NCBI RefSeq assembly: GCF_900167395.1
Contig: NZ_FUWK01000001.1
Span: 30,001 to 62,000 of the forward strand
Length of the DNA: 32,000 nucleotides
Direction of reading: 5' to 3'
Origin: Nitrosomonas europaea
GTDB lineage: Bacteria > Pseudomonadota > Gammaproteobacteria > Burkholderiales > Nitrosomonadaceae
The notes beneath the pieces are model-generated. The model was given only the letters and a program-made list of their open reading frames with translations. It searched no databases and was not told the origin of the DNA. Every line of letters starts with the position of its first letter. Positions within the stretch are counted from its first letter, which is position 1. Shown here piece after piece: positions 6,077-24,455 of this stretch. Both the position numbers and the translations under genes were made by a program.

Positions 6077-6082
6077 TATAAT
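6077..6082 (+). promoter_or_regulatory. candidate -10 box (TATAAT) upstream of guaB
   Basis: A perfect tataat lies 25 nt upstream of the guaB ATG. No good -35 box is visible; the sequence at the expected spacing is tcagaa-like. Confidence 0.3.
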
Positions 6083-6094
6083 AGGGTTTTGTAA

Positions 6095-7570
<1,476 letters not shown>

Positions 7571-7581
7571 GTTTTTCTGAT

Positions 7582-9141
7582 ATGCATTCAGCCATTCTCA
7601 TCCTGGATTTTGGCTCGCAATACACCCGGCTGATTGCCCGGCGCATTCGCGAGACCAATGTTTACTGTGAACTCCATCCCTTTGATGTCAGCCCGCAATT
7701 CATCCGGGAATTTGCACCTATCGGTATTATTCTCTCCGGCGGGCCAGCTTCGACTTTCACTGAGGATGCGCCACGTGTGCCGCAAATCGTGTTCGAGCTG
7801 GGGGTTCCCGTCCTCGGTATTTGTTATGGAATGCAAGCCATGGCAGCTCAGCTCGGTGGAGAAGTGGAAGATGCACAGACGCGTGAATTCGGTTACGCAG
7901 AACTGCTGACTGCGCCGTGCAAGCTGTTCCATGGCATACAGGACCGCATTAACTCCGATGGCAAACCGGCTCTTGACGTCTGGATGAGCCATGGCGACCG
8001 TGTCAACAAACTGCCACCGGGTTTCACTGCCATTGCCTCCAATGCAGCGACTCCCTTCGCTGCCATGGCGGATGAAACGCGCAACTTTTACGGAGTACAG
8101 TTTCACCCTGAAGTCACCCACACACGACAGGGCAAGGCAATTCTCGATCACTTCGTGCACGATATCTGCAGTGCAGGCTATGACTGGAACATGCCTGATT
8201 ACGTGGAAGAAGCCATTGGCCGGATTCGTGCCCGTGTCGGGAATGATAAAGTCGTCCTGGGGCTATCTGGAGGGGTGGATTCATCCGTAGCCGCTGCACT
8301 CATTCATCGTGCCATTGGCGATCAACTGGTATGCGTATTCGTGGACAACGGCCTGCTTCGCCTGAACGAAGCCAAGCAGATCATGGAAACCTTCAGCCGG
8401 AACCTTGCGGTCAATGTCATTTACATCGATGCCGGCAGGCAGTTTCTGGAACAACTGAAAGGAATCACCGACCCTGAACAGAAACGTCGCACCATCGGCC
8501 GTGAGTTCGTGGAAATCTTCCAGCAGGAAGCTGAAAAGATCGAAAATGCAAAATGGCTGGCACAGGGCACCATCTATCCTGATGTCATTGAATCCGCTGG
8601 CAGCCACACCAAGAAAGCAGGCGTTATCAAATCCCACCATAACGTGGGCGGTTTACCGGAAACACTTCATCTCAAACTGCTGGAGCCACTGCGCGAACTG
8701 TTCAAGGATGAAGTACGTGAACTTGGCCTGGCACTGGGATTGCCGCATGATCTGGTGTTCCGCCATCCATTCCCCGGCCCGGGACTGGGTGTCCGTATTC
8801 TGGGAGAAGTCAAATACGAATACACCGAGTTACTGCGTCAGGCTGATGCCATTTTCATCGAAGAACTGAGAAATGCCGGCTGGTACGAAAAAACCTCTCA
8901 GGCATTTGCCGTTTTCCTGCCGATAAAATCAGTTGGCGTCATGGGAGACAATCGCAGTTATGAATATGTAGTCGCCTTACGCGCTGTTCAGACCGAAGAT
9001 TTCATGACCGCACACTGGGCAGAACTGCCCTACACCCTCCTCTCCAGAATCTCAAATCGCATCATCAATGAAATCCGCGGTATCAACCGTGTGGTCTACG
9101 ATATATCAGGCAAACCCCCGGCAACGATCGAGTGGGAGTAG
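7582..9141 (+). CDS. guaA: glutamine-hydrolysing GMP synthase
   Basis: The GATase domain shows [25 protein letters not shown] and QFHPEV. The ATP-PPase P-loop is [11 protein letters not shown], and the C-terminus KPPATIEWE is canonical. Confidence 0.97.
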
Positions 9142-9836
9142 GATTGTTCTTTTAAATTATTGATTTATGTAAAATTAGCAATCAATAAATGATATTTATT
9201 ACATCATCAATGGTGCTTGTTATGGTAGGTGGAGAGCGTGCTATGGCAAGAGTCTCCGATATCATGATCAAGTTCTCCATTCCGCATGATCTTGAGCCCG
9301 ATGCCGAGGTTACAGCACTTGGAGTCCGGTGTGCGGCGTAAACAGCAAATCCGTTTTTAGATAGAGGATAACCCATGCCTGTTCTGCTTTTCGTTCTCTG
9401 GTAGGGTTTGGTAATTTCCTGAGTATAGGGAGCTATGCCAAGTTACAGCCTGAACGAAGACCGCTTGGCTCAGAAAGGACTGGAGAACTGGAACAAACCG
9501 TGGAACAGCCGCGGCAGGCACTGACACGTCAACAGTTTTGGTTTCAGACTTGGGGCAAGAGGTCGTTGACCTGATCTGACGTCAGAGCGGTTCGCTCAGC
9601 AACATCAGAAAAACCCATTTTTAACCCATGGACTCCGTGTCAGCGCCGTACTAGAGCATTCTGCATTTAAGTCCGTGCCCGTGCATATCCGGAATTGAGG
9701 AAGTAATTTCTACATTCAGACTTGAGTATCCTACATCGACTCTATCTAAGTACAGAATGCTCTAATCCCGGGGGCCGGTCATGTCACCGTCATCGGGAAT
9801 CATGATTGCTGCAATAGTCAAGCAAAGAATACCCGT

Positions 9837-12800
9837 GTGATGTCGTCTCTTTCCCAACCCAAGGGCTTAGTATTCGACCTGGAGGTGGTGCCGCCCAAGG
9901 GCAAACAGCCTGCCTGTATTGTGATGGTGGGTGCCTTGCGGCCAGATTCCAGTGCTGAGCTGGAGTTGAAGGTGACTGGAGACCCGTCCTCGGCTCTGCA
10001 GCAACTGGATGCGCTGTCTGAGGGGGCGAGTTTCGTGCTTGGGCACAATGTCATCGCACATGACTTACCCATCTTGCGCGAACATTCTCCCAATATGGCC
10101 CTGCATACTCTGCCAGTCATAGATACGTTGCGTTTATCTCCGTTGGCGTTTCCGCAGAATCCGTATCACCGGCTGGTCAAGGATTACAAACTCATCCGCG
10201 ACAGCCTCAACTCACCCCTGTCCGACTGCCGCTCGACTCTGGTTCTTTTTCAGGATCAACGCCAGGCTTTCACACAGTTGAACGAGAGCAACCAGGCGGA
10301 GCTTCTCTGCTACCAGACGTTGCTGGCGCCGAGTATGAAGGGGAATCTAGGCGCCTTCTTCGCGTCCTTAACTGGGCAGTCTCCGGTATCTGTACCCGAG
10401 CTCAGAACGCTGGTTCCGCAATTGCTGCAAGAGACGGATCCGTCGCAACCGCGGGATTTGAAGGTATGTCGAGCACGATTGGAGCAATTACTCGAAGAAG
10501 ATCTGCAACAGGAGGATCTACACTGGCCGTTGGCCTATGCGTTAGCCTGGCTCCGGGTATCTGGTGGCAACTCGGTGTTGGCACCCTGGGTGCGGCATCA
10601 GTTTCCGGAGGTTGGCCGACTAATTTCCGAACTGCGTGATGCACCGTGTGAGCGAGAGGATTGCCAGTATTGTCAGACGACGCATGACCCACGCCACGAG
10701 CTAAAGCGTTACTTCGGCTTCCCTGATTTTCGCTACGAGCAGCCAGGGGAAAGTCTTCAGCACGATATCGTGCTGGCCGGCATGCGTGGCCAGCATGTAC
10801 TGGCCATCCTGGCGACCGGCGGGGGCAAGTCGCTATGTTATCAATTGCCGGCGTTGAACCGGTTCCATCGTAACGGCAGTCTTACCGTCATCGTTTCGCC
10901 GTTGCAGTCACTGATGAAGGATCAGGTCGACGGACTGCTGGAGCGCAACGTCCAGTGCGCCGCAGCGCTGAATGGCCTGCTTACCATGCCGGAGCGCGCC
11001 GAGGTACTGGAGAAGATCCAGATGGGCGATGTCGGCATTTTGCTTGTGTCGCCCGAGCAGTTCCGCAACAAGGCTTTCCGGCGAGCGATCCGTCAGCGTC
11101 AGGTTGGTGCCTGGATTTTCGATGAGGCGCACTGCCTGTCGAAATGGGGCAGCGACTTTCGGCCAGACTACCTTTATGTGTCCCGCTTCATCCGGGAGTA
11201 CACCGGTGACCAACCGCTGGCGCAGATCGGCTGTTTTACCGCGACGGCCAAGCCCGATGTGCTCGCGGATATTCAGAGCCACTTCAGGGAAAGCCTGGGC
11301 ATTGAATTCAAGGTGTTCCCCGGAGGGCACGAGCGAACCAATCTGCATTTTGACGTGCTGCCCTGCACCAAGGCAGAGAAGTGGTCGCGTACCGATCGCT
11401 TGCTGCACGAGCATCTTGACAGCCAGGAGGGCGGTGCAGTCGTCTTCGTTTCCAGCCGTAAGAGTGCTGAGGAGCTGTCAGACTTCCTGATAGGTCAAGG
11501 CTGGCCTTGCAAGCACTTCCATGCCGGTCTGGAGCCCAACACCAAAACGGATATCCAGGACGACTTCAAAGCAGGACAACTGAGAATCATCGTTGCCACC
11601 AACGCCTTCGGAATGGGCGTGGACAAGGCTGATATCCGTCTCGTCATACATGCCGACATACCGGGATCGCTGGAGAATTACCTGCAGGAGGCGGGCAGAG
11701 CTGGACGTGATCAGGGCGATGCGCGCTGCGTGCTGTTGTACGACCCGCAGGACATCGAAACCCAGTTCGGCATAAGCGAGCGCTCGAAGCTCAGTATTCG
11801 CGACATTCAGCAGATCTTGCGCAAGTTGCGTAACGAGAGCAATCGGCGAAAGGGGGGCAAGTTGGTCATCACAGCGGGTGAAATCCTGTTGGATGATGAT
11901 GTCGATACCAGTTTTTCCGCGGACGAGCGCGATGCAGAAACCAAGGTCGTTACGGCGGTTGCCTGGCTGGAGCGTGGCGATTACCTCAAACGTGAGGAAA
12001 ACCATACACAGATTTTCCCAGCACGACTGGATATGAGTGAGAAAGAGGCCGAGAAGCGCTTGCTGAAAGCCAAGCTGCCGCAGCGTCGATTGGAGGAGTT
12101 CAGGGCTATTTTGCGCTTTCTCTACGGCGCCGATGCTGATGAGCGGGTGAACACCGACCAGTTGATGCAGTTGACCAGTCTGGAGTCGGAGGAGGTTGCC
12201 AGCGCACTCAAACAATTGGAGGAAATGGGGCTGCTGGTCAACGACTCGCAGATCACGCTGTATGTGCGCCACGGTGTGACCGGGGCTTCCAGTCAACGCC
12301 TGCAAAGCTCCCTGGAGTTGGAAAGGGCTTTGCTGCAGCGCTTGCCAGAGCTGGCGTCTGACGCCGGGCAGGGGGAGTGGCAAGATCTGAATCTGCCGGC
12401 ACTGGCCGCTGAGCTCAAGGCGGACACCAGGCAGGGAGATCTCCTGCCGCTCCAGGTGCTGCGCTTGTTGCGCAGCCTGGCCGACGATCATGATGCCAAT
12501 AGCCAGCAGCGCAGCAGCTTCGAGTTACGGCAGCTCAACCGTGATTACCTCAAGTTGCGTATCAAAGGCGGACATTCCTGGCGGCAGATCGAACGTTTCG
12601 GTGAAAAGCGCCGCGCTCTGGCTGGCGTATTGATGGAGTTCCTGATCGGTAAGCTGCCCCCCGGCTCGCGCAACAAGGATCTGCTGGTTGAGACGAGTTT
12701 TGGCGAGTTGGTCAAGGCATTGGAGTCTGATCTTGAGCTGCCCCATCTCATCGCTCCGGATCAGCGCCGCAAAGCAGTTGAGCATGTGCTGCTCTATCTG

Positions 12801-14963
12801 CATCGGCAGGACATTTTGACCCTCAACCACGGCATGACGGTCATGCGTCGAGCCATGACCATCGAGGTCAAAAAGGAAGACAAGCGCAAGACCTTCCTCA
12901 AGGAGGATTACCTGCGACTCGACGAGCACTACCGTGAGAAGCGTATCCAGGTTCATGTGATACATGAGTATGCCGAAGTGGCGCTGAAGGAGATGGCCGA
13001 AGCGTTGCGCTTGGTACTGGATTACTTCACTGACTCCAAGCAGGCATTCATCAAGCGCCATTTTGCCGGGAGGGAAGATGTGCTCAAGCTGGCGACCAGC
13101 GAGGCGTCATGGAAGTCGATCATCGAGTCGCTGAGCACTACTCAGAAACTGATCGTCGCCGACGATGATGACATCAACCGGCTGGTGCTGGCCGGGCCGG
13201 GCTCCGGCAAGACACGTGTGATCGTGCACCGCATTGCTTACCTGCTGCGGGTGCGGCGAGTGCCGGCGACTAGCATCGTGGCGCTGACCTTCAACCGCCA
13301 TGCAGCGAACGAGATCCGTAAACGGCTGTTGGCCCTGGTCGGGGCCGATGCTTACGGTGTCAGCGTTCTGACCTATCACAGCATGGCCATGCGTTTGACC
13401 GGCACCCGCTTTGAGCGAGGTGATACGGTTGACGAACGAGCCCTCAAGCGGGTACTGAGCGATGCTGTCGAGTTGCTGGAAGGCAAGCGCAATGTTGAGG
13501 GCGAGGACAACCTACGCGAGCAGTTACTGCGCGGATACCGTTACATCCTGGTTGACGAATACCAGGACATCGACGATCTGCAATACCGCCTGGTCAGTGC
13601 TCTGGCCGGACGGCACGCGGAAGAGGATGGCCGGTTGTGCATCATGGCAGTAGGTGACGATGACCAGAACATCTATGCCTGGCGCGATACCAACAACCGT
13701 TATATTGAGCGTTTCCGCGAGGACTATGAGGCGTCGATCAGCTTCCTGGTCGATAACTACCGTTCTTCCCTGCGTATCATTGAAGCGGCCAACCAACTCA
13801 TTGGCCAGAATTCGGCTCGTCTGAAAGAGGCCAATCCCATCCGGATCGACAGAGCACGGCAAGAGCTGCCTGCCGGTGGGCTATGGGAAGAGCAGGATAA
13901 ACAGCGGAAAGGCCGGGTACTGAGATTGCTGATCGACCCGAGCGACCGTGAGCGCGGCAATCTGCAGGCTCAGGCGGCCATGCTGGAGTTGGAGCGGTTG
14001 CTGGTGCTCGAGCAAGGGAGTTGGAACGGCTGTGCGGTTCTGGCTCGGACGCACCGCTATCTGTGGCCAATCCAGGCCTGGTGTGAGCAGCACGATATTC
14101 CTTATTTCCTGGCAGCAGACAAGGAAACGGCGTTACCCATTACTCGGCAGCGCAGTTTTGTGGCTGCAATCGACTCTCTGCGAGAAATCGAAAGCGCTTT
14201 GTGCGCGGCTGACGCATGGCTGCGTTTGTCGGGTAGCAATCAACTGGTGGAAGCCGAGTGGAAGAGTTTTTTCCAGACGGCCTTTGAGCAAATGCGAGGA
14301 GAGTTGGGCGACTGCCAACTTGGCAGTGGTGCCTTGATCGACTGGCTGTACGACTACGCCCGTGAATTGCGCCAACAGCCGAAGGAAGGTCTCTATCTTG
14401 GCACCGTGCATTCGGCCAAAGGGCTGGAGTTCCGCCATGTCGTTCTGCTGGATGGTGGCTGGAGCACGCAGGTCGATACCCTGGCCGATGAGCGACGTTT
14501 GTACTACGTAGGTATGACACGAGCCGAACAGACTCTGGCGTTGTGCGAGTTTGCTGACGGCAACCCATTTAGCCGCAGCCTGATGAAGGGGGTTCAGCAA
14601 CACGCGTTCCAGGGACAACCTCTTCCTGAGCTGGAGCTGCGTTTTCAGCAGCTTACGCTGAAGGAGATCGACATTAGTTTTGCCGGTCGTCAATTACCGC
14701 ATGCCCGGATACACAAGGCGATTGAGGCGCTTCGCGAGGGAGATCCGCTGACGTTGAAGGAAGAGGCTGGCCGCTATCAACTGCTCGACAGGCAAGGCAA
14801 CGTAGTAGGGCGAACCGCCAAGTCGTTCCAGCCACAGATTGGCTTCGCTCACTGTGAAGTTGCGGTAGTCATAGTGCGTTTTGCCGAGGATAGTGAGGAG
14901 CAATATAGGGATTTGAATAAGTGTGAGCGCTGGGAGGTGGTTGTGCCGCGAGGGAGAGGGTAG
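9837..14963 (+). CDS. 1708-aa fusion protein: DEDD-type 3'-5' exonuclease-like domain + RecQ-type SF2 helicase + unassigned middle region + UvrD/Rep-type SF1 helicase + small C-terminal domain
   Basis: This is a single uninterrupted ORF starting at GTG 9837 or ATG 9840. Exonuclease-like motifs are FDLE (9873-9884), GHNVIAHD (10041-10064) and HRLVKD (10167-10184). The RecQ core shows ATGGGKS (10812-10832), DEAH (11121-11132), FTATA, ATNAFGMGVDK and QEAGRAGRD (11685-11711). The UvrD core shows GPGSGKT (13194-13214), ALTFNRHAANE, DEYQD (13554-13568), VGDDDQNIYAWR, NYRSS, VHSAKGLEF (14406-14432) and YYVGMTRA (14502-14525). Confidence 0.9.
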   Translation: MMSSLSQPKGLVFDLEVVPPKGKQPACIVMVGALRPDSSAELELKVTGDPSSALQQLDALSEGASFVLGHNVIAHDLPILREHSPNMALHTLPVIDTLRLSPLAFPQNPYHRLVKDYKLIRDSLNSPLSDCRSTLVLFQDQRQAFTQLNESNQAELLCYQTLLAPSMKGNLGAFFASLTGQSPVSVPELRTLVPQLLQETDPSQPRDLKVCRARLEQLLEEDLQQEDLHWPLAYALAWLRVSGGNSVLAPWVRHQFPEVGRLISELRDAPCEREDCQYCQTTHDPRHELKRYFGFPDFRYEQPGESLQHDIVLAGMRGQHVLAILATGGGKSLCYQLPALNRFHRNGSLTVIVSPLQSLMKDQVDGLLERNVQCAAALNGLLTMPERAEVLEKIQMGDVGILLVSPEQFRNKAFRRAIRQRQVGAWIFDEAHCLSKWGSDFRPDYLYVSRFIREYTGDQPLAQIGCFTATAKPDVLADIQSHFRESLGIEFKVFPGGHERTNLHFDVLPCTKAEKWSRTDRLLHEHLDSQEGGAVVFVSSRKSAEELSDFLIGQGWPCKHFHAGLEPNTKTDIQDDFKAGQLRIIVATNAFGMGVDKADIRLVIHADIPGSLENYLQEAGRAGRDQGDARCVLLYDPQDIETQFGISERSKLSIRDIQQILRKLRNESNRRKGGKLVITAGEILLDDDVDTSFSADERDAETKVVTAVAWLERGDYLKREENHTQIFPARLDMSEKEAEKRLLKAKLPQRRLEEFRAILRFLYGADADERVNTDQLMQLTSLESEEVASALKQLEEMGLLVNDSQITLYVRHGVTGASSQRLQSSLELERALLQRLPELASDAGQGEWQDLNLPALAAELKADTRQGDLLPLQVLRLLRSLADDHDANSQQRSSFELRQLNRDYLKLRIKGGHSWRQIERFGEKRRALAGVLMEFLIGKLPPGSRNKDLLVETSFGELVKALESDLELPHLIAPDQRRKAVEHVLLYLHRQDILTLNHGMTVMRRAMTIEVKKEDKRKTFLKEDYLRLDEHYREKRIQVHVIHEYAEVALKEMAEALRLVLDYFTDSKQAFIKRHFAGREDVLKLATSEASWKSIIESLSTTQKLIVADDDDINRLVLAGPGSGKTRVIVHRIAYLLRVRRVPATSIVALTFNRHAANEIRKRLLALVGADAYGVSVLTYHSMAMRLTGTRFERGDTVDERALKRVLSDAVELLEGKRNVEGEDNLREQLLRGYRYILVDEYQDIDDLQYRLVSALAGRHAEEDGRLCIMAVGDDDQNIYAWRDTNNRYIERFREDYEASISFLVDNYRSSLRIIEAANQLIGQNSARLKEANPIRIDRARQELPAGGLWEEQDKQRKGRVLRLLIDPSDRERGNLQAQAAMLELERLLVLEQGSWNGCAVLARTHRYLWPIQAWCEQHDIPYFLAADKETALPITRQRSFVAAIDSLREIESALCAADAWLRLSGSNQLVEAEWKSFFQTAFEQMRGELGDCQLGSGALIDWLYDYARELRQQPKEGLYLGTVHSAKGLEFRHVVLLDGGWSTQVDTLADERRLYYVGMTRAEQTLALCEFADGNPFSRSLMKGVQQHAFQGQPLPELELRFQQLTLKEIDISFAGRQLPHARIHKAIEALREGDPLTLKEEAGRYQLLDRQGNVVGRTAKSFQPQIGFAHCEVAVVIVRFAEDSEEQYRDLNKCERWEVVVPRGRG

Positions 14964-15300
14964 GAGCAACGCTGGATAGATCGCATGCGGATTTTTTGGG
15001 AGTTGGCTATAAGGCAAAATCTTTCATACGGCAATCGACCTGCACTGAATGGAGAGTGGATTGAAAATGGCAAGGAAGCGCAGAAGTAGAGGTAAGCCCA
15101 ATTTATCTGCCGGATTGACGTGGTTTAATGAAACCACATCAAGAGGATTCAAGACAACGATCAGACATGGGAGCGCTGGCGCGCCCGTGGCGATCATCAG
15201 CTACTACATGCCAGAGCGATGGAGCTTGATCCGGCGTTTGATCTCACGCAATACGCGATTTTCAACCAGCACCTCGACTGAGGCTGCGCCCCACGCATAA

Positions 15301-16158
15301 CGAGACAAACTCGAAGACATCGACGAGCAGATCAATGCGGGAATGACGCGAGAATACTTCATCGGTACCGTGCTGGTGTCGCCGACTGATCAGAAAAACC
15401 ATTATGAAGTCATAGATGGCCAGCAGCGCCTGACTACGTTCTTCCTGTTGCTGTGCGCTCTCAAGCATCTGTTTCAGGGTGAGCCGCAGCAGCAAGCCGT
15501 CAGTGGCTTGATCTCGACCAGCTACACGGACAACGATGGGGAAACGCGGATCAGCCTGAAGCTGGAGCCGCGCTACGAGAACGCGGGCGAAGTCATCACC
15601 AAGCTGGTGGAACTCGACGCCGACCCGCAGGTTGTGCGCGTAGGCATTCAGTCATCGAGCATCGCCAGCTTCGGGTCGCTGGAAAACCTGGTCAATGCCT
15701 ACGGCACGCTGTACCGATACCTGAAGGACAACTACGACAGCCCGGCCAAGCTGAAGAAATATTGGGGCTACCTGGCGAACGACGTAGTATTCATCCAGAT
15801 TTCCACGGACGTGAGCAGCGCCCTAAAAATCTTCGAGACGATCAACGAGCGCGGCGTCGGCCTCAACCCGATGGATTTGCTGAAGAACCTGCTGTTCACG
15901 CAGGTGGGGCAAGCGCAATTCACCCAGCTCAAGGATGAATGGAAAAAAATCACCAGGCCATTGGAGAAAGGGAAGGAAAAGCCGCTGTTCGACCATTTCG
16001 TGATGCAGTTGGAGAACTTTCTCTTCTACTACATCTTCACCAAGACGCCGACCAGAGATATGGAGCGCAGCTTTTCCCAATGGGCCAATGAACTGCGCGC
16101 GATCGCTGACGCTGCCGAATGTAGGTGCCACAACCAATGGCAAGGTATTGACTCCTGA
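15301..16158 (+). pseudogene. truncated DUF262 (ParB/Srx-fold, GmrSD / SspE / DndB-like) gene remnant
   Basis: The ORF 15343..16158 contains the DUF262 signature YFIGTVLV...YEVIDGQQRLTTFFLL. The upstream FQRxYxW-type block is missing. The same frame is closed by TAA at 15298-15300 just before KLEDIDEQINAG. There is no DUF1524/His-Me nuclease half. The last ~15 codons look like junction junk, and GC drops abruptly after about 16150. Confidence 0.55.
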
Positions 16159-16362
16159 TCTATGGAAAGGGCAATCTTGGCTCTATATGGTATTTTTCGT
16201 GGTTCGAGCGGTCGGTCTATGATCAATAGACTGATTCAAAAGGATTTTTACTGATTATTGATGACCGAGTGGATCCAGAAGAAATTAGACCACGACAGTC
16301 TTATACAGCTACAATAATTGATCTTGATAACGGTACCACCTTACTAACGGTTCATTACGTTT

Positions 16363-18447
16363 ATGAAAAATCCTCTGGAGGGTAGTGTCATACGGCGCGT
16401 GATGGTAGGCACCGATCGCTCCGAAACTGCCGACCAGACTGTTCAGTGGGCTGCCGGACTAGCGGACCGCTACGACGCAGAGCTATTCATAGTACAGGTA
16501 ATAGTACCGAAATATCCATCCGCCACAGAATTCGGTGAATCCGAACAAACAAGTGCTGTGGCTGCCAACAACGACCTGGCACACTTTGCGCGGCAGATTG
16601 CCGGAGAACGTGGCCATGCCCTGGTCGTCATTAATGCTGATCCGGCATTGGCGATCGTCCATGCCGCTGAGCAGGAAGCAATCGATGTCCTGGTGGTTGG
16701 CAATCTTGGCATGGCAGGTCGAAAAGAATTTTTGCTCGGTAACATACCGAACCGCATCAGTCACAATGCTCACTGTACTGTAATTATTGTAAATGCTGCG
16801 CACTCTGCCGATGAGCGTGCACCGCACTCGGTGCGAGCTTCCCTGTCTAATGATGAAATCCCGTCTTTTAAGCCTCGACTGGTAGCACGCGCTACGCATA
16901 TCGCAGCCGTGATGGCAAAACATGGGCTCACAGAGCTGTTCAGCCAATCCGACCCAGATATATCCATCCGCCGCCAGCAGGCCAGGCGCTTACGTGGCGC
17001 CCTGGAAGAGCTGGGCCCGATATTCTCGAAACTCGGGCAAGTGTTATCAACCCGTCCGGATCTCCTTCCAATCGAATACATCGAAGAACTTGTACTGTTG
17101 CAGTCTCGCGTGCCGCCAATGACTGAGAGCGAGGTCGTCCGGGTCTCTGAACAGGAACTGGGTGTCCCGTGGGAGGATGTATTCAAGTCATTTGACCCGA
17201 ACCCTCTCGCCGCCGGCACAATCGCGCAGGTCCATCGTGCGACGCTCGAAACCGGTGACCGGGTCGTTGTCAAAGTTCAGCGACCCACTGCTCGTGCTGA
17301 TATCGAACAGGATCTCGCTCTGTTCGAGATGTTTGCGGAGAAAGTCGGGAAGCGTCCTGCGCTCAATCAGGTGATCAATATGGAGGATGTGTTCAAGCAC
17401 CTTTCCACCTCGCTCCATCGTGAACTCGACTTTCGCCAGGAGGCCAACAATATTGAGCGGATGCGGACAGTGCTCGCAGACTATGATCGTCTTGCCGTCC
17501 CCAGCATACACTGGGATCTGTCCACATCCCGATTACTGGTGATGGAAGAAATCCAGGGCATTCCGATCAAGCAGGCGCCAGCCGGTCCAGAGCGTATCCA
17601 GGCCGCTCGCCAACTGTTGGAGAGCTACTACAAACAGATCATCGTCGATGGTTTCTTCCATGCCGACCCTCACCCAGGCAACCTGATGTGGTGGAAGGAC
17701 TGCATTTATTTTCTCGATTTCGGAATGGTTGGCGCGGTAGGAGCCGATCTTCGCGAGCATCTTTTGTTAATGCTGATGGCTCTGTGGCAGGAAGATGCCG
17801 GGTTTCTCACCGATGTCACATTGATGATGACGAACGCTGTCAATAGCAACGATTTCGATGTGGCTCAATTCCAGAGCGAGATCGGGGAGGTGATGGCAAA
17901 ATATCGGGCCGCCTCGCTTGCTGAGATGCAGATCGGGCCGCTTCTGCAAGAAATGAGCACCGTCTCGTTACGACACGGGGTGCCGCTGCCGGCTTCGCTC
18001 ACGCTTGCCACCAAAGCACTTGCGCAGGTACAGCTGGCGACTGCTGAGCTTGATCCGACGCTCGATCCTTACGACGTGGCAGGCAAGTATCTGATGCGTT
18101 TGATGGTCAAACGCATCGGCGCCGCGCTCAATCCAAAAACATTCGTGTATCAGTCGCAGAAGTTGAAAGTACGGACTCTGCGCGTGATCGAAGCACTCGA
18201 AAACCTCGTCGGTGTCCGCCCTGGCGGTCCAAAACTTGTAGTGAACTTCAAGGCTAATTCGCTGGAGAATATCGTGCGTCACACAGGACGACGGCTGGCG
18301 CTCGGCCTGACCGCTGCGGCAAGTATTCTGACCAGCGGACTCACGACCATGTCTACGGCTGTTGCCGAGTGGGTACCAGTAACATTCGGGGCTGTTGCAG
18401 GTCTGCTGACTCTTGGCCTGGTTATCGATCTGCTGCGAGGACGTTAA
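16363..18447 (+). CDS. universal stress protein (UspA) domain fused to an ABC1/UbiB-family atypical kinase, with a C-terminal membrane anchor
   Basis: The USP domain (about aa 11-144) carries the nucleotide-binding motif G-x2-G-x9-G-N, read as GNLGMAGRKEFLLGN (16699-16743). The ABC1 motifs are LGPIFSKLGQVLSTRPDLLP, AAGTIAQVHRA, VVKVQRP, ELDFRQEANN, HADPHPGN (17659-17682) and DFG (17716-17724). A hydrophobic tail spans aa 644-690. Confidence 0.85.
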   Translation: MKNPLEGSVIRRVMVGTDRSETADQTVQWAAGLADRYDAELFIVQVIVPKYPSATEFGESEQTSAVAANNDLAHFARQIAGERGHALVVINADPALAIVHAAEQEAIDVLVVGNLGMAGRKEFLLGNIPNRISHNAHCTVIIVNAAHSADERAPHSVRASLSNDEIPSFKPRLVARATHIAAVMAKHGLTELFSQSDPDISIRRQQARRLRGALEELGPIFSKLGQVLSTRPDLLPIEYIEELVLLQSRVPPMTESEVVRVSEQELGVPWEDVFKSFDPNPLAAGTIAQVHRATLETGDRVVVKVQRPTARADIEQDLALFEMFAEKVGKRPALNQVINMEDVFKHLSTSLHRELDFRQEANNIERMRTVLADYDRLAVPSIHWDLSTSRLLVMEEIQGIPIKQAPAGPERIQAARQLLESYYKQIIVDGFFHADPHPGNLMWWKDCIYFLDFGMVGAVGADLREHLLLMLMALWQEDAGFLTDVTLMMTNAVNSNDFDVAQFQSEIGEVMAKYRAASLAEMQIGPLLQEMSTVSLRHGVPLPASLTLATKALAQVQLATAELDPTLDPYDVAGKYLMRLMVKRIGAALNPKTFVYQSQKLKVRTLRVIEALENLVGVRPGGPKLVVNFKANSLENIVRHTGRRLALGLTAAASILTSGLTTMSTAVAEWVPVTFGAVAGLLTLGLVIDLLRGR

Positions 18448-18461
18448 AGATAAAAACAGTT

Positions 18462-18584
18462 TTACGATGCAGAGTTGTTCCGCGCCGAAAATTTTGTGCC
18501 ACTGCGCTTGATCGAACGTAATACAACCCTCTCGATCAGATAGGCGATGATCATCATTACCATACCTAATAGCCAGCGTTCCAT
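18462..18584 (-). CDS. hypothetical 40-aa single-TM peptide (very tentative)
   Basis: The internal ATG of the minus ORF 18462..18704 gives MERWLLGMVMMIIAYLIERVVLRSIKRSGTKFSARNNSAS, a TM helix followed by a basic tail. There is no convincing RBS and I recognise no family. Confidence 0.15.
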   Translation of the reverse strand: MERWLLGMVMMIIAYLIERVVLRSIKRSGTKFSARNNSAS

Positions 18585-18739
18585 TTTTCGAGTCAAAGAC
18601 CCTTTAGAAATCGTTCTCATGGAAACATTATTCATCATAAATCTATTATCAATTGAAGAATTACGATCCGCAATGAGTAACTCTCTGCGCTTAACGCTAT
18701 GCATAACAGGCCGGCCGGATACTCACCATCAGCGTTGCC

Positions 18740-21700
18740 ATGATGAATGATCGTGTATCAGCATGGCTGGATAGCCTTGGTCTCACTGTATATCACGAGT
18801 CGTTTGAGCACAATGCGATCACTTGGGATGTCCTGCCCGAGCTGAATGAAGACGATCTGGAGGCGCTGGGTGTCTTACTGGGGCATCGGAAAATACTCTT
18901 GCGTGCAATCGCGCAATTGTCACAGAACACTGCAAGTCCAGGCCCGGGATCTATACTCGCTGGCGTTATTCCGGAAGAACAATCATTCCCTCTCGAACGA
19001 AATCAGGCAGAACGTCGCCAGTTAACGGTAATGTTTTGCGATCTTGTGGATTCGACGGCACTATCCTGCCGGCTGGACCCTGAAGACCTCCAGGATGTGA
19101 TCCGGCAATTTTTAGTTGCCTGCAGCCAGGCGATTGGCCGACTCAATGGCTATGTCGCAAAATATATGGGAGATGGAATACTGGCTTATTTTGGGTACCC
19201 TCATGCTCACGAAAATGATGCGGAACGAGCCGTACATGCCGGCCTCGCTATTCTGGATACAGTGAAGGTATTTAATCTGAACAATCCCCATCCACAGCTT
19301 AGTATTGCTGCTCGAATCGGGATCGCTACCGGTCAAGTCGTAGTCGGTGAACTAATGGGGCAGGACACTGCCACGGAACGGTCAGTGTTCGGTGAAACGC
19401 CGAATCTTGCCGCCCGCCTCCAGGCACTGGCTAAACCCGGTCAATTGATCATCGATCTGGCGACAAAACGGCTTGTCGGAAATGAATTCGAGTTCTCGGA
19501 TCTTGGTGCTTCCTCGCTGAAAGGATTCGATACACCTGTCCACGCCTGGCAAGTTCTGAGTATCAAGCCATCAGCCAGCCGATTTGAATCCTATCGATCC
19601 GGCCAGTTAACCAAATTCGTAGGCAGAGAACAGGAGATTTCACTCCTGTTGGGCCGTTGGCATGAGGCCGTCAGCGGTGAAGGACAGGTCGTGCTCCTAA
19701 GCGGTGAAGCCGGTATCGGAAAATCGAGAATCGCCTGTAGCTTGCGTGACCACCTTGCAGATGAACGACACCAGGTAATTCAATTTCAATGTTCACCGTA
19801 CCACATTAATACAGCGCTCTATCCGGTGATCAATTTTTTGCGACAGGCAGCAGGATTCGCAAATCAGGACAGTGCCGAGACACAACTGAACAAGCTCGAT
19901 GCCATGGCCGCCAAAAGCGGGATTGATGATCCGAAGACGGTTTCATTGCTGGCCGATCTGCTCTTGATCCGGGGAGATCATCGCTACCCGCCGCTCAATG
20001 TGTCATCCGAAAAACGCAAGGACATGACGCTGGAAGCGCTCGTGCAGCATCTGCAAAAGCTGGCTGGTCATTGCCCCCTGTTGTTCATTGTGGAAGATGC
20101 CCATTGGCTTGATCCGACCACGCTGGAACTCATAACACGAATCATTGGCCATATCCGGCAGATGCGCATGTTGCTGCTAATCACATCTCGACCCGGCTTC
20201 AAACCGGTATGGGCGGAATATAGTTATGTGACATCCCTGACGCTCAGTCGGCTTCCACGCCGACATAGTGCTGAGCTCATTACGACGATGGCAGGAGGAA
20301 AAGTGCTTCCACCCGAAGTACAGCAGGCAATTCTGGCCAAGGCTGATGGCATACCTCTTTATATCGAAACGTTGACGGAAAATGTGCTTGGATCAGGGCT
20401 GCTGACTGAGGGAAACGATTCATTTACCTTGCAGGGTCCAGTAAAGAAATTGCCCATTCCGGACAGTCTGCAAGCCTTGCTCATGGAACGGGTGGATCGG
20501 TTAGGATCAGCCAGGGAAATTGTCCAGGCCGGTGCAGCAATAGGGCGTGAATTCACCTACGAGCTGCTGCAGGCCACTGTTGAAGTGCCGGACAGCGAGT
20601 TGAAGGATGCACTTGATCTGTTTGTTGCTTCCGGACTCGTTCTGCAAGAGGGCGAGATCCCTCTTGCGACATACTACTTTAAGCATGCACTGGTCCAGGA
20701 AGCTGCCTACAGCATGCTGCCCAGGAAACTCCGGCGAGCACTTCATGCCCGCATTGCCAAGGCCCTGGAGAGCCGGTTCTCCGAACGGGTAAGCATGGAA
20801 CCGGAACTCCTGGCTTATCACTATGAGCAGGCAGGATTAGCCGGTCCGGCCGTTGAATATTACCATCGTGCGGCTCGTTGCGATGTGGAACGATCAGCCA
20901 GTATCGAAGCACTCAATCATTTTAATCGGGCGCTCGAGTTGCTAAAGGAACTGCCGCAAGGCCCGGAGCGAGATACCCTGGAGCTGGAGCTCCTGATTGC
21001 ACGCGGAGTCCCGTTGCTGTCCGTCAAAGGGTATGCATCTGACGAAATGGAACATAATTATCGAAGAGCGAAGGATTTGTTACAGGAGCACAGCAGTTTC
21101 GTACATCAGTTCCGAGCCATTCGGGGATTATGGGTCTTTCATCTGGTCAGAGGGCAACTCGCCAATGCGCGCGGCCTGGCCGAAGATCTCCTCGCGCTGG
21201 CTCGCCGCGAGCAAAGCCCGGAGCTACTGATTGAAGCTCACCATGCTTTGGGCGCGACCTGCTTCTACCTTGGCCAGTTTGACGAAGCCAGAACCCATTT
21301 GTTCGCCGCAAAATCTCTCGATGACTCGAATCAACATGACTCACAGGTTTTCTTCTACGGCCAGGATTCCGGAATAACCGCGCGGATTCTGCTGGCCAGG
21401 ACATTATGGATATTGGGTGAAGTCGATCAAGCTGAGACGCTGGCGTTGGAGACGATGGGCATGGCGAGAGAGTTGGAGCACCCATTCACTCGTGTTTTTA
21501 CTCTCATTTTCCTTGCCTGGATCTATTCCGGTGCCCACAATGCGGAGAAAACGCTGGAAATCACCAATGAAGCGATCGCAATTTCAACACAATACTCATT
21601 TGAATTGGGGTTGGCGTGGGCGACCGCCTCGCAAGGCTGGGCGTTGGCCGACACCGGGCAAGAGGAAGGTATCGCCAAGTTAATTGACGGGCTTTCCGCC

Positions 21701-22135
21701 ACCCGGGCCACAGGAGCGCGTATCCACGACTCTTGTACCTTGGCGTTGCTGGCGGAAGTTTATTTGCGTAGAAATAGAATTGACGAAGGCCTGGCTGCCA
21801 TTGAGGAAGCGCAGAAGCTTGCTGTCACTGGGGGAGCATTATTCTGGCAAGCGGAATTGTTTCGACTGAAAGGCGAACTGCTGCAGGAACAGTCCGGCGA
21901 ATCAGTCCAGGAAGCAGAAGAGTGTTTGTGTGAAGCCTTAAAGATTGCGCAGGATCAGCATGCAACAATGCTTGAACTTCGAGCTGCCACGAGCCTGGCT
22001 AAACTTTGGAGAAAACTCAATAAAATAGATAATGCCAAATACATCTTAAATGATGTGTACTTCAGATTCAGCGAATGCACCGACAACCTCGACTTGATTG
22101 AAGCGAAAACAGTTCTTGAACAACTTGGTGTATGA
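18740..22135 (+). CDS. SAM domain + class III adenylate/guanylate cyclase + AAA_16/STAND NTPase + TPR array protein
   Basis: A SAM-like domain lies at aa 5-60 (VSAWLDSLGLTVYHESFEHNAITWDVLPELNEDDLEALGV). The cyclase motifs are RRQLTVMFCDLVDST, KYMGDGILAYFG, RIGIATGQVVVGE and FGETPNLAARL. Walker A is GEAGIGKS (19703-19726) and Walker B is LLFIVEDAHWLD. The C-terminal ~440 aa are TPR-like helical repeats. No HTH output domain is present. Confidence 0.9.
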   Translation: MMNDRVSAWLDSLGLTVYHESFEHNAITWDVLPELNEDDLEALGVLLGHRKILLRAIAQLSQNTASPGPGSILAGVIPEEQSFPLERNQAERRQLTVMFCDLVDSTALSCRLDPEDLQDVIRQFLVACSQAIGRLNGYVAKYMGDGILAYFGYPHAHENDAERAVHAGLAILDTVKVFNLNNPHPQLSIAARIGIATGQVVVGELMGQDTATERSVFGETPNLAARLQALAKPGQLIIDLATKRLVGNEFEFSDLGASSLKGFDTPVHAWQVLSIKPSASRFESYRSGQLTKFVGREQEISLLLGRWHEAVSGEGQVVLLSGEAGIGKSRIACSLRDHLADERHQVIQFQCSPYHINTALYPVINFLRQAAGFANQDSAETQLNKLDAMAAKSGIDDPKTVSLLADLLLIRGDHRYPPLNVSSEKRKDMTLEALVQHLQKLAGHCPLLFIVEDAHWLDPTTLELITRIIGHIRQMRMLLLITSRPGFKPVWAEYSYVTSLTLSRLPRRHSAELITTMAGGKVLPPEVQQAILAKADGIPLYIETLTENVLGSGLLTEGNDSFTLQGPVKKLPIPDSLQALLMERVDRLGSAREIVQAGAAIGREFTYELLQATVEVPDSELKDALDLFVASGLVLQEGEIPLATYYFKHALVQEAAYSMLPRKLRRALHARIAKALESRFSERVSMEPELLAYHYEQAGLAGPAVEYYHRAARCDVERSASIEALNHFNRALELLKELPQGPERDTLELELLIARGVPLLSVKGYASDEMEHNYRRAKDLLQEHSSFVHQFRAIRGLWVFHLVRGQLANARGLAEDLLALARREQSPELLIEAHHALGATCFYLGQFDEARTHLFAAKSLDDSNQHDSQVFFYGQDSGITARILLARTLWILGEVDQAETLALETMGMARELEHPFTRVFTLIFLAWIYSGAHNAEKTLEITNEAIAISTQYSFELGLAWATASQGWALADTGQEEGIAKLIDGLSATRATGARIHDSCTLALLAEVYLRRNRIDEGLAAIEEAQKLAVTGGALFWQAELFRLKGELLQEQSGESVQEAEECLCEALKIAQDQHATMLELRAATSLAKLWRKLNKIDNAKYILNDVYFRFSECTDNLDLIEAKTVLEQLGV

Positions 22136-22267
22136 AATCGCTGCTGGAGCTGGAGCACCAAGAAAAATTCCTACCCGGTTGGTCTGCAACAAAACTGAAA
22201 ATCAGTTAATAATAAAATAAAACATGCCTAAAAAACCACAACAACAGGCTCTATACACATCTATCAT

Positions 22268-23326
22268 TCATTCCCTCATCGTTTCCATATATTGTGTGTG
22301 CAGATGCCGGAGCAAAACGAGCAAAACTGCGCTGACCGGCAGTGCCAGCAAAATTCCGATAAAGCCAAACAGCTGGCCGAAAGCGAGTAATGCAAAAATT
22401 ACCGCTACCGGATGCAGGCCGATACGCTCCCCCACCAGACGGGGGGTAATCAGCATGCTTTCCAGCAGTTGTCCTGATCCCACCACCACCCAGACTGCGA
22501 TTACGCCACTCCATTCCTGAAATTGCGTAATGGCAGCAAAGGTTGCCAGTGCAAGCCCGGTGATAGTTCCTAAGTAAGGTACAAATACCAGAATCCCGGA
22601 TATCAATCCGATCGGCAAGGCAAATTCCAGTTTGACCAGCCATAGCCCTGTCACATAGTAGATGCTCATGATGGTGATGACCGCTGTTTCCCCGCGCATG
22701 AATTCGGCCAGTACGTCATCGGTTTCCCTTGCCAACGTAAAAATCTGTTTTTGCCAGACAGGTGGAATCAGTTCTCCCACTTGCCTGATCAGGTTATTCC
22801 AGTCGCGCAACAAGTAAAACAATACAACCGGCACCAGCACCAGATTCATCAGGAACGTGAGGAGGATCAGGCCACCGCTTTTCAGCGAAGGCAGCATTTG
22901 CGCAGCCACGCCCCCGGCACTTTTCCAGTGCTCTGTCAGCATCTGTTTGAGCGAGGCAATATCGATCTGAAGCTCGACATTAAAATTATCTTCCAGCCAG
23001 GGAATAAACTGGCTCTTCACCAGATCGAGAAAAGACGGGATTCGCTCAACCAATCGTGAAACTTCTTTTTCGAACAATGGAAACAGAATCAGCGCCATGG
23101 CGATGAATATTCCCATGGTCATGAGCATCACGAAGATCGTGCTCAGGGTTCTGGGAATTTTTCTGGCTTCGAGCCAGGTAACCAACGGATTACAGATATA
23201 GGCAATGACGGCCGCCAATAAAAAAGGAGTCAGAATGGGACTGAGCAGATAGATCAGCGCACTGACCACACCAATGACTGTCAAGTACCAGAAGAGACGG
23301 GAATCCGGGGAATATTTGTCGTTCAT
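22268..23326 (-). CDS. perM: AI-2E family transporter (PerM/YhhT, UPF0118) permease
   Basis: A 352-aa polytopic membrane protein. Family-typical blocks include FLLAAVIAYICNPLV, FVPYLGTITG and ITPRLVGERIGLHPV. It is divergent from purM, as in E. coli. Confidence 0.85.
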   Translation of the reverse strand: MNDKYSPDSRLFWYLTVIGVVSALIYLLSPILTPFLLAAVIAYICNPLVTWLEARKIPRTLSTIFVMLMTMGIFIAMALILFPLFEKEVSRLVERIPSFLDLVKSQFIPWLEDNFNVELQIDIASLKQMLTEHWKSAGGVAAQMLPSLKSGGLILLTFLMNLVLVPVVLFYLLRDWNNLIRQVGELIPPVWQKQIFTLARETDDVLAEFMRGETAVITIMSIYYVTGLWLVKLEFALPIGLISGILVFVPYLGTITGLALATFAAITQFQEWSGVIAVWVVVGSGQLLESMLITPRLVGERIGLHPVAVIFALLAFGQLFGFIGILLALPVSAVLLVLLRHLHTQYMETMRE

Positions 23327-23385
23327 TTACGGTAAAATCATGCCTCAAAAGCTGCACTCTAGCCTTAACACTGTGAGAACTCAAC

Positions 23386-24444
23386 TTGACTGCGTCCAAC
23401 CCTGCAAACCCTGATAAAAACCCGATTTCCTACCGTTCATCCGGTGTTGATATCGATGCCGGAAATCGTCTGGTGGAAAGGATCAAACCATTTGCACGGC
23501 GCACTATGCGCCCGGAGGCACTGGGGGGTATCGGCGGATTCGGGGCATTATTCGAAGTACCTGGAAAATACCGGCAGCCGGTGCTGGTATCAGGCACGGA
23601 TGGCGTAGGCACCAAACTCAAGCTGGCTTTCCAGTATGCGCGACATGCAACCATTGGTATCGATCTGGTTGCGATGAGCGTGAACGATATTCTGGTACAG
23701 GGTGCTGAGCCACTGTTTTTTCTGGACTATTTCGCCTGTGGAAAATTGGATGTGGAAATTGCCACCCAGGTGGTTCAGGGAATTGCACACGGCTGTGAAG
23801 ATGCCGGTTGTGCGCTGATTGGAGGTGAAACGGCAGAGATGCCTGGTATGTATCCCGAAGGAGAATATGATCTTGCAGGCTTTGCTGTCGGCGTGGTGGA
23901 AAAAGATCGGATCATCGATGGTTCCGGCATCAGAGAGAACGATATCGTACTGGGAATCGCCTCGAGCGGTCCGCATTCCAATGGATTCTCACTAATCCGT
24001 AAAATTCTTGATCTGAATACAGTGCAATCTGACACTCGTCTTGGTGAAACCAGTCTTATCGATGCGCTTCTGACACCGACCCGTATTTATGTGAAATCCC
24101 TGTTGACGTTGATGGCAGAATTGCCCGTCAAGGGATTGGCACATATTACCGGTGGCGGATTACTGGAGAACATTCCGCGTGTTCTGCCCGACGGCGTCAT
24201 GGCCCATATCGACAGCAGCACCTGGGTACGCCCTTCCCTGTTCGACTGGTTGCAACAACATGGCAATGTGGCCAGGGAAGAAATGCTGCGTGTTTTCAAT
24301 TGCGGCATCGGTATGGTTGTGGTCATTGCTCCGGAACACGCTCAAACTGCCATCGAAATTTTGCACAACGCGGGTGAAACTGTGTGGCAGATCGGCGAAA
24401 TCAGACCTCGTCAATCCGAAACACTCCCCATCGTCATTGCCTGA
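23386..24444 (+). CDS. purM: phosphoribosylformylglycinamidine cyclo-ligase (AIR synthetase)
   Basis: Motifs [47 protein letters not shown] and [11 protein letters not shown]. The only in-frame start near the conserved N-terminus is TTG 23386. Confidence 0.95.
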
Positions 24445-24455
24445 AAGAAGGCGCC

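Follow-up and report, generated by a model that had tools for sequence, protein, structure and literature searches.

A stretch of 32,000 nucleotides of the Nitrosomonas europaea genome (contig NZ_FUWK01000001.1, positions 30,001-62,000; hereafter the window, in whose coordinates 1-32,000 all positions are given) contains an interval of 13.1 kb (9142-22267) between the GMP synthase gene guaA and the transporter gene perM. The initial annotation, made from the sequence alone, had interpreted this interval as one mosaic island. Its gene calls and coordinates (guaA ending at 9141, perM from 22268, and accessory open reading frames (ORFs) in between) were confirmed, but the segment missing from a close relative covers only 6.9 kb, 9266-16160. 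The interval as a whole is probably composed of a docking site at the end of guaA with 124 bp of resident flank, an N. europaea-specific 6.9-kb patchwork of defence-gene fragments from at least two foreign loci, and a resident right half at 16161-22267.

The boundaries were obtained from the sister lineage PRO5, annotated as ‘Betaproteobacteria bacterium PRO5’ and represented by two loci, L049 (WBZO01000714.1) and L054, with GuaA 98% identical to that of the window. Labels of this form denote comparison loci or contigs from genomes and metagenomes. In PRO5 guaA is followed by a spacer of 596-597 bp, a Usp-ABC1 kinase gene, a nucleotidyl cyclase gene, perM, purM and purN. In blastn alignments positions 2395-11686 of L049 correspond to window 1-9265 (94.2% identity) and positions 11955-21560 to window 16161-25768 (96.6%), with 268 unrelated bp in place of the 6,895 bp at 9266-16160 of N. 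europaea. The PRO5-specific 268 bp have no counterpart among the comparison loci. Loci L060 and L064, from a lineage 98.6% identical, carry the insert with identical junctions; since they have it and PRO5 does not, the insert is common to N. europaea sensu lato and missing from the next lineage out. On the right side, the truncated DUF262/GmrSD ORF stops at 16158 and homology to PRO5 restarts at 16161, so the seam at which this gene had been noted to end is a genuine breakpoint, two bases past the stop of the ORF.

The segment 9266-16160 is thus foreign, composite and absent from PRO5. Alignment to relatives, proposed earlier as a way of locating empty sites and junctions, revealed a relative with conserved flanks that lacks 9266-16160, but none for 16161-22267. 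The features of the interval and its neighbourhood are as follows.

4121-4786: hda
6107-7570: guaB
7582-9141, + strand: guaA (GMP synthase; Pfam GATase, NAD_synthase, GMP_synt_C), last gene of the conserved left block
9126-9141, + strand: unoccupied attachment site attB, GATCGAGTGGGAGTAG, with the core GAGTGGGA at 9130-9137
9142-9265 (124 bp): AT-rich flank 3' of guaA, guanine-plus-cytosine (GC) content 0.315, present in PRO5 too and in no other species (blastn)
9266-9797 (532 bp): non-coding segment, left part of the insert, found only in N. europaea-type loci among those compared
9798-15118 (5.3 kb), + strand: fragment of a defence island of Pseudomonas type (88.2% nucleotide identity; blastn to L034, L033 and L037)
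9840-14963, + strand: HEL, an intact gene for a 1707-aa protein read as an exonuclease-RecQ-UvrD helicase (Pfam, NCBIfam, PADLOC, PDB sequence search, AlphaFold2 (AF2)/Foldseek)
15067-15118, + strand: scar of sngA (TerB_N), its first 17 codons (52 nt), from comparison with L034 (sngA start 15230) and L037
15137-15307, + strand: 3' remnant of a 434-aa gene that elsewhere precedes GmrSD (blastn 78-83% to L066, L139 and L140; tblastn to L139 2239-3543, residues 388-434)
15310-16118, + strand: pseudogene of GmrSD (type IV restriction), Pfam GmrSD_N only, delimited by mapping onto full-length homologues
15343-16158, + strand: the called GmrSD_N (DUF262) ORF, 271 aa
16161-16362: upstream region of Usp-ABC1, present in PRO5 too, with a promoter-like site at 16286-16315 and a candidate relic att
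16263-16278: candidate relic att, GACCGAGTGGATCCAG; the PRO5 counterpart is GATCGAGTGGGTCCAG, about 100 bp upstream of the Usp-ABC1 start
16363-18447, + strand: Usp plus ABC1/UbiB-like atypical kinase, 694 aa (Pfam, NCBIfam)
18740-22135, + strand: SAM - class III nucleotidyl cyclase - AAA_16 STAND ATPase - TPR protein, 1131 aa (Pfam, NCBIfam)
22268-23326, - strand: perM (AI-2E family transporter; Pfam), first gene of the conserved right block
Past perM, in order: purM, purN, DUF3108, rsmB

The two halves of the interval also differ in composition. The block 9837-16150 has a GC content of 0.567 and the block 16363-22135 one of 0.528, as the initial annotation had seen, and both flanks lie at 0.49-0.50. 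Tetranucleotide distance to the flanks is maximal at 10001-15000 (29, against 9-12 within the flanks). The 17 flank genes have a mean GC at third codon positions (GC3) of 0.517 (standard deviation (sd) 0.053); composition and codon usage are atypical in the insert and host-like in the right half, so that the proposed GC and tetranucleotide check supports the left part of the 13.1 kb and not the right. The seams in the interval, previously described as long and AT-rich, have GC contents of 0.31-0.43 and are ordinary for the window, the intergenic spacers of the flanks ranging over 0.27-0.46.

Among the other marks of genomic islands, mobility genes, tRNAs and flanking direct repeats are lacking, in agreement with what had been noted from the sequence. 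In the guaA-perM interval the tRNA/tmRNA scan found none, the Rfam scan no family, and the Pfam search of ORFs no integrase domain. Int (at E<=0.01), AlpA, RepA, RepC and TrbL of the integrative element GIsul2, described below, had no tblastn match in the window. A search for direct and inverted repeats over 8900-22400 yielded only short chance-level families and no copy of the guaA end, and promoter and terminator scans gave counts not above those in shuffled sequence. Searched against plasmids in distant mode, the insert DNA gave only 66-73% matches to helicase genes and one of 71% to a DUF262 gene; no plasmid-borne copy of the insert was found in the plasmid search. The non-coding segment 9266-9797 contains no ORF, matches nothing in Pfam, Rfam or PADLOC, and has no match in any comparison locus outside the N. 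europaea type. It includes an 18-nt inverted repeat (9652-9669 / 9747-9764) with arms 89% complementary and 77 nt apart.

The largest part of the insert is related to Pseudomonas. DNA homology spans exactly 9798-15118, which has a GC content of 0.569 and the largest tetranucleotide distance of the window. The GC3 of HEL, 0.682, is 3 sd above that of the flank genes, and its product shows the high identity to distant taxa that is expected of island genes: 93% to a ‘MULTISPECIES: Pseudomonas’ protein, 88-91% to proteins of P. aeruginosa and Alcaligenaceae, and 76% to one of Pseudocitrobacter (Enterobacterales). For comparison, GuaA is already at 77-79% in Nitrosospira, Sulfuricellaceae and other Burkholderiales, all Betaproteobacteria. 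HEL is intact and under purifying selection, its ratio of non-synonymous to synonymous substitution rates (dN/dS) being 0.086 relative to Pseudomonas (dS 0.48) and 0.15 relative to L060. In L004/L008 (ERR9765778) it is split into ORFs of 1498 and 223 aa, which may be real decay or an assembly error.

In Pseudomonas the HEL locus lies downstream of pheST-ihfA, within a defence island. The order there is Shedu (SduA_C), Fic, HEL, a trio of TerB, BrxC-BrxD-like and DEAD helicase genes, and a gene for a 2098-aa Pkinase-DUF4011-AAA_11/12 protein; we take the trio to be Shango and the 2098-aa protein to be Hhe-like. The window differs from this P. aeruginosa-type island in keeping the helicase alone, Shedu, Fic and Shango being absent, and the hosts belong to different proteobacterial classes. 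Since 17 codons of sngA were kept after HEL, the N. europaea piece was cut from a HEL-Shango context; ‘orf83’ (15049-15300) is a chimeric frame across the cut and no real gene. Between the Pseudomonas loci the Shango-like three-gene system varies as a sharply bounded block of 5.9 kb, present in L034 (15275-21201) and missing from L037 (15274/15275). The Shango-less L037 keeps the first ~15 sngA codons, and the N. europaea segment ends within a few bases of that point.

The dead type IV restriction gene that follows derives from a second, different donor context. When metagenomes were scanned with the DUF262 remnant, 80 loci were retrieved, many of them with a full-length GmrSD (GmrSD_N and GmrSD_C) of 611-624 aa and 85-91% nucleotide identity. 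Mapped onto such homologues, 15310-15987 corresponds to codons 40-266 and 15979-16118 to codons 368-414, the missing parts amounting to three deletions. One removed ~129 nt including the start and the first 39 codons, another an internal 306 nt at ~15987 with a 9-nt overlap (15979-15987), and the last the remaining ~600 nt including the entire nuclease domain. As in GmrSD type IV enzymes (DUF262 + DUF1524), the DUF262/GmrSD_N part with its DGQQR motif is kept, matching Pfam GmrSD_N from profile position 32, but GmrSD_C, the start region and the 306 nt are gone, which makes the remnant a pseudogene; the two domains, combined in one polypeptide of ~600 aa in the full-length relatives, are not so combined in the window. 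Its GC3 of 0.768 is 5 sd above the flank genes. In L003/L015 (JGI 3300014713) the remnant is further broken, and hda and guaA are split as well, again by decay or assembly error. The earlier proposal of mosaic, horizontally acquired DNA without mobility genes, brought in by more than one event, is supported for these 6.9 kb and not for 13 kb.

The right half of the interval looks native, since the cyclase occurs family-wide and has a host-like composition. Full-length orthologues (76-90%) are found in Nitrosomonas sp. HPC101, Nitrosospira sp. NpAV, N. nitrosa, N. ureae and Nm84, and the gene, with a GC3 of 0.533, stands beside perM in PE_soil1 (L055; 89% aa identity, with Usp-ABC1 there too) and in a third species, L018 (82%). 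Usp-ABC1 (GC3 0.587) is 98% identical in PRO5 and 91% in PE_soil1, and looks like a resident gene of the N. europaea clade. In PRO5 and PE_soil1, and for the cyclase also in L018, the identities of the two proteins track those of neighbouring core genes; dN/dS relative to PRO5 is 0.14-0.20 for both. The earlier description of the interval as containing only accessory-type genes therefore fails for the right half, with its family-conserved cyclase and two genes of GC3 0.53-0.59, values that fall among those of the 17 flank genes.

The cyclase resembles TIGR03903, the kinase/cyclase fusion of TOMM systems, in its cyclase/ATPase part, matching from model position 277. It is not an equivalog: the score of 568 bits is below the cut-off of 706, and the N-terminal kinase is replaced by a SAM domain. 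Full-length relatives (75-81%) also occur beyond Nitrosomonadaceae, in metagenome-assembled genomes labelled Nitrospiraceae/Nitrospirota and Polynucleobacter, and conservation across nitrifier groups is unusually high for a signalling protein.

The left end of the interval adjoins the attachment site of GIsul2. The core of this element, 5'-GAGTGGGA-3', lies at the 3' end of guaA, and both excision and integration have been shown to depend on the integrase (PMC9376610). In the account given there of Nigro & Hall 2011 and Harmer 2017, GIsul2 is a 15.5-kb integrative element carrying sul2 and ars genes and targeting the 3' end of guaA. In the complete N. europaea genome CP157069.1 (L009), whose left flank is 99.2% identical, homology to the window ends at 9137, four bases before the guaA stop. 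Past guaA come an integrase, AlpA, RepA-like, RepC and TrbL proteins, a ptaRNA1 toxin and ACR3/ArsC/ArsH, and the 10 kb of this element (L009 11561-21560) are 100% identical to GIsul2 on plasmids of E. coli, Morganella (R485), Acinetobacter baumannii, Pseudomonas and Providencia, with R485 and pAB3-like plasmids as clinical examples. At attL, ...ATCGAGTGGGA is joined to ATGATTCC, regenerating the end of guaA (IEWE-stop). The opposite junction is seen in a metagenome contig 99.6% identical (L031), which starts with TGTCTTGTTTACAATAGAGTGGGA and continues with the window from 9138 onward; this 24-mer represents the right end of GIsul2, found in R485 (23/24 identical) 280 bp past sul2. Contig L060 begins exactly at GAGTGGGA. 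GIsul2 occupies this core in CP157069.1, L013, L046-48, L050 and L052-53, with GuaA 100%, 98% or 93% identical to that of the window, the two lower values standing for at least two other Nitrosomonas lineages.

These junctions indicate that the window has an unoccupied attB at 9130-9137 and that, where GIsul2 is inserted, the guaA-perM interval is found on the right side of attR. The role of the guaA 3' end as an integrase target, which the initial annotation had brought up, is thus borne out in this genus by the GIsul2 attachment site. The window itself holds no GIsul2: there is no integrase immediately 3' of guaA, the core occurs once, in attB configuration, and not in both attL and attR, and the backbone (alpA, repA, repC, trbJKL, toxin, ars) is missing by tblastn with the R485 copy for comparison. 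The exact target core is present at the guaA stop, but the 6.9-kb insert is neither GIsul2 nor a recognisable derivative of it, and its junctions are off the core.

What follows guaA in other loci is listed below.

Contigs L046-48, L050 and L052-53 (GuaA 98%, 93%): intact GIsul2
HPC101 (L041 11561-17014, QRCC01000009.1; L043): GIsul2-type integrase (95% aa) with a frameshift near codon 45, then a 1276-aa SIR2_2 protein
L045 (11561-11880, JAJTXG010000001.1): 81-nt scar identical to the GIsul2 left end, then rsgA and a pterin-4a dehydratase gene
L044: scar of the GIsul2 left end plus an insertion sequence (IS)
PE_soil1 (L055): 12-nt scar plus an IS
L051 (11590-12675, PRO5-type lineage): a different tyrosine integrase, 58% identical to GIsul2 Int

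GIsul2-family sequence is found 3' of guaA in 7/9 flank types, and the immediate 3' content differs in every lineage examined. By tblastn, GIsul2 Int was found in L041, L043 and L051, and the integrase of L051 shows that more than one island family targets the site in Nitrosomonas. In blastn comparisons with other species homology to the window is lost at 9137-9140; the flank GAGTAG + GATTG.../ATCTG... is confined to PRO5 and the type of the window. In Nitrosomonas the 3' end of guaA is thus an active integration and rearrangement hotspot, and in this strain it is empty. HPC101 presents a decaying guaA island with other, defence-like cargo. The arrangement in L045 suggests a deletion or rearrangement starting inside GIsul2; in N. 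europaea rsgA and the pterin-4a dehydratase gene lie ~10 kb beyond perM. Our literature search found no paper linking Nitrosomonas with GIsul2. The occurrence in ammonia oxidisers of an element of plasmids from clinical Enterobacterales, Acinetobacter and Pseudomonas bears on whether wastewater nitrifiers serve as reservoirs of resistance islands.

Gene order points to the same breakpoint. The left block DsbH...hda-HAD-TIGR04073-guaB-guaA is kept in L041, L044, L045, L049 and L055, and the right block perM-purMN-DUF3108-rsmB...GGDEF/EAL-FKBP-rsgA in 11 Nitrosomonas genomes. Only the N. europaea clade has the two joined via the 3' end of guaA; the proximity of guaA and perM is therefore specific to this clade, and their adjacency is not ancestral. 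In HPC101 a single contig carries guaA and perM on the same strand, ~36 kb from each other; the orientation differs from that in N. europaea, and in L045 guaA abuts rsgA. The neighbour of perM is a 460-aa protein of no known function, followed by purL, OPT and others, in N. eutropha, SJ624, PRO4 and HPC101, and an OEP/HlyD/ABC exporter in N. halophila and ANs5. Breakpoints thus recur in the 3' flank of guaA.

In E. coli K-12, yfgO (perM), hda, purMN and guaAB are located within 19 kb, with guaA and perM 15 kb apart and 13 genes between them. The closeness of hda, guaBA, perM and purMN in that species, cited in the initial annotation, accordingly holds as regional linkage and not as guaA-perM adjacency. 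E. coli YfgH and YfgI showed no convincing homology to the Gly-zipper and orf177 proteins of the window, and extended K-12 synteny is not claimed. The 460-aa protein, which has no Pfam match, is encoded right after perM in five related species (L018-L022, ~11060-12550); in L018 it lies between perM and the cyclase. It is absent in N. europaea, PRO5 and PE_soil1, and no remnant of the gene was found between cyclase and perM (22136-22267), so its loss there left no trace.

A possible second boundary of the integration site is the candidate relic att at 16263-16278. The first 11 nt of its PRO5 counterpart GATCGAGTGGGTCCAG equal the guaA end, a match reached in 13/20,000 shuffles of the PRO5 guaA-Usp-ABC1 spacer, and the homology of PE_soil1 to N. 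europaea and PRO5 begins at the next base past the motif, extending to the right and not to the left. The motif may be an old attR-type junction, in which case the sequence from guaA to 16263 would be a cargo bay filled and eroded differently in each lineage, a plausible but still somewhat doubtful reading. Three points weigh against it: the match is short and was noticed post hoc; in the window it is degenerate (9/11) and lacks the guaA stop codon expected to the right of a true attR; and the PE_soil1 sequence left of the motif may be where a repeat or IS element ends. The search for a duplicated guaA 3' end, recommended by the initial annotation, thus gave no convincing repeat in the window beyond this 9/11 candidate, and an 11-nt copy in PRO5.

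The preferred account would run as follows. Integrase-borne islands would enter at guaA again and again. Their integrase and backbone would be stripped, and fragments of cargo brought side by side, by deletion and illegitimate joining of the kind seen in the cut through sngA, in GmrSD with its three deletions and in the 81-nt scar of L045. The insert would then be the residue of a repeated fill-and-erode history downstream of guaA, in which selection may have kept HEL as the sole part still active, the rest being debris. Decay in place has precedents in the frameshifted integrase of HPC101 and in the scars of the GIsul2 left end in L045, L044 and L055, from 81 nt to 12 nt. With degenerate islands at the 3' ends of housekeeping genes the window shares absence from a close relative, atypical composition, an adjacent att site and a lack of mobility genes, and HPC101 with its frameshifted integrase shows the intermediate state. 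The window differs from them in that half of the proposed island is resident and no flanking repeats are left in this strain. The mosaic may have been assembled in Nitrosomonas or may have arrived pre-assembled.

Several observations weigh against parts of this account. On its left the insert is joined at 9265/9266, 124 bp past the att core, and neither junction has an att-like repeat; with this offset and no repeats, the present insert was not simply integrated at attB. The dS of 0.48 between HEL and its Pseudomonas homologue exceeds the core dS between N. europaea and PRO5 (0.07-0.19), so the sampled Pseudomonas is not the direct donor. The residency of Usp-ABC1 is based on three close lineages and composition only. 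Finally, the locus of the outgroup PE_soil1 is broken by IS and contig ends, and either insertion in N. europaea or deletion in PRO5 may account for the difference between the two.

The original interpretation, in which the entire 13.1 kb (9142-22267) is foreign, arrived in at least two events and split an ancestral guaBA / perM-purMN adjacency, is now very improbable. The interval does sit between two conserved blocks, E. coli K-12 shows a regional linkage of perM, hda, purMN and guaAB, and Usp-ABC1 plus cyclase occur at this position in no other species examined. However, PRO5 retains both genes between guaA and perM without the left 6.9 kb, the right 6.1 kb are shared with PE_soil1 as well, the cyclase stands beside perM in PE_soil1 and L018 with identities that track the flanks, and cyclase orthologues of host-like GC3 extend across Nitrosomonadaceae. 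Moreover, guaA is adjacent to perM in no genome examined, including E. coli. A reversed polarity, in which the common ancestor of N. europaea and PRO5 held the HEL/GmrSD mosaic or a larger island that PRO5 deleted, leaving 268 bp, is unlikely but deserves more weight. Deletions are frequent at this place (the L045 scar, the HPC101 integrase pseudogene, the three in GmrSD), PRO5 has the better-preserved relic att, and its 268 bp without counterpart in N. europaea mean that neither state is a clean empty site; the still strongly foreign GC3 of HEL (0.68) speaks against long residence, and the outgroup evidence favours neither direction.

It is also possible, though we doubt it, that the insert is unrelated to the att site of guaA and is a linear or pre-assembled fragment fixed near guaA by chance through illegitimate or microhomology-mediated recombination. 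This would fit the junctions 124 bp off the core without repeats, the truncated gene pieces and scars of illegitimate joining (including the GmrSD deletion with its 9-nt overlap at 15979-15987), and the absence by tblastn of any integrase trace in the window. The location would then be a coincidence in need of explanation, given that 7/9 flank types carry GIsul2-family sequence and every lineage is different, and that the variable bay has the candidate relic att as its boundary. That the mosaic stems from an assembly artefact or a chimera can be practically dismissed. The window is 99.98% identical to the complete genome of ATCC 19718 (AL954747.1) and 100% identical over 19 kb to CM135170.1, several metagenome contigs likewise reach 100%, and the same structure recurs in these two complete genomes and many independent metagenome contigs; contig breaks at the guaA end (L031, L060) are explained by presence/absence polymorphism of GIsul2. 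For the annotation of N. europaea, the analysis separates 6.9 kb of foreign from 6.1 kb of resident sequence, marks ‘orf83’ and the 271-aa DUF262 ORF as debris, and leaves HEL as the only foreign gene still alive. Islands degraded in this way beside integration hotspots are of an ordinary kind; this one can be dissected unusually cleanly.

The product of HEL combines two helicase cores. Residues 285-657 form a superfamily 2 (SF2) core of the RecQ family, with GGGKS at 327 and DEAH at 428, which E. coli RecQ matches at E 4e-60. The score against TIGR00614 (280 bits, cut-off 220) places it in the RecQ family, and those against TIGR01389 (324, cut-off 640) and NF008279 (244, cut-off 1015) are below what is required of the housekeeping RecQ equivalog. 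Residues 1094-1570 form a UvrD/PcrA/Rep-like superfamily 1 (SF1) helicase with AGPGSGKT at 1118, and a weak winged-helix signal is seen at ~760-810. Pfam searches at E<=1 of the N-terminal, middle and C-terminal parts gave nothing beyond weak signals of this kind. The N-terminal ~290 residues have no Pfam (E<=1) or PADLOC match. Their AF2 model, built with nine homologues, has a mean local confidence (pLDDT) of 84.7 and a predicted template-modelling (TM) score (pTM) of 0.84. The specific Foldseek matches to it are all DEDD exonucleases, and weak (E 3.5e-3 to 0.1; TM 0.3-0.46): the S. aureus DinG exonuclease domain, the exonuclease domains of Pol II and T7 polymerase, ISG20, RNase AS, ERI1 and TREX2. 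Residues D13, E15, H69, N70, D75, H110 and D115 are invariant in the nine homologues. Residues 1-~280 are therefore read, on the predicted structure, as a DEDDh-type 3'-5' exonuclease fold with the candidate catalytic residues D13, E15, D75 and H110-x4-D115, and the protein as a putative exonuclease-RecQ-(winged helix)-UvrD fusion.

Like WRN (exonuclease and RecQ) and S. aureus DinG (exonuclease and helicase), HEL would have a DEDD-fold exonuclease preceding a helicase core; unlike them, it has a second, SF1 UvrD-like motor fused C-terminally. With the RecQ-like defence helicases DpdF and PsyrT and the UvrD-like GajB it shares only partial PADLOC matches. The sole catalogued defence gene of the insert is the dead GmrSD, and in Pseudomonas the homologue of HEL is placed among Shedu, Shango and Hhe-like genes. 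Because of this genomic company and its mobility across classes, the most likely role of HEL is defence against phages or plasmids by a single protein that targets nucleic acid. Invading DNA would be unwound by one motor or by both and degraded by the 3'-5' exonuclease at the N-terminus. It counts against this assignment that PADLOC v2, applied to HEL whole and in pieces, gave no full-length model match, its partial ones being to DpdF, PsyrT and GajB. Literature searches on the architecture returned nothing specific.

More speculatively, HEL could be a one-gene system against phages or plasmids, so far uncatalogued, that passes from one defence island to another among Gamma- and Betaproteobacteria as a 5.3-kb segment on its own. 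The guaA bay would then be its capture site, where GIsul2-family integrases deliver, deletion strips the vehicle and the useful gene is kept; this is a rather doubtful proposition. If it were true, wastewater nitrifiers would swap defence genes as well as the sul2 island with clinical Proteobacteria at one site. As a widespread, defence-island-associated architecture without an assigned system, HEL is a reasonable candidate for experiments.

Outside the guaA-perM interval, another variable spot of the window was observed at 2807-3985. It is occupied by an Acetyltransf_6 (GNAT) gene with a GC content of 0.40 and a GC3 of 0.38, far lower than its neighbours. At this spot L013 adds a DegT aminotransferase gene and a second Acetyltransf_6 gene, and PE_soil1 (L055) has an unrelated gene for a 247-aa protein on the opposite strand. 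The Acetyltransf_6 copy of PRO5 is only 87% identical to that of the window, its neighbours being 96-100% identical.

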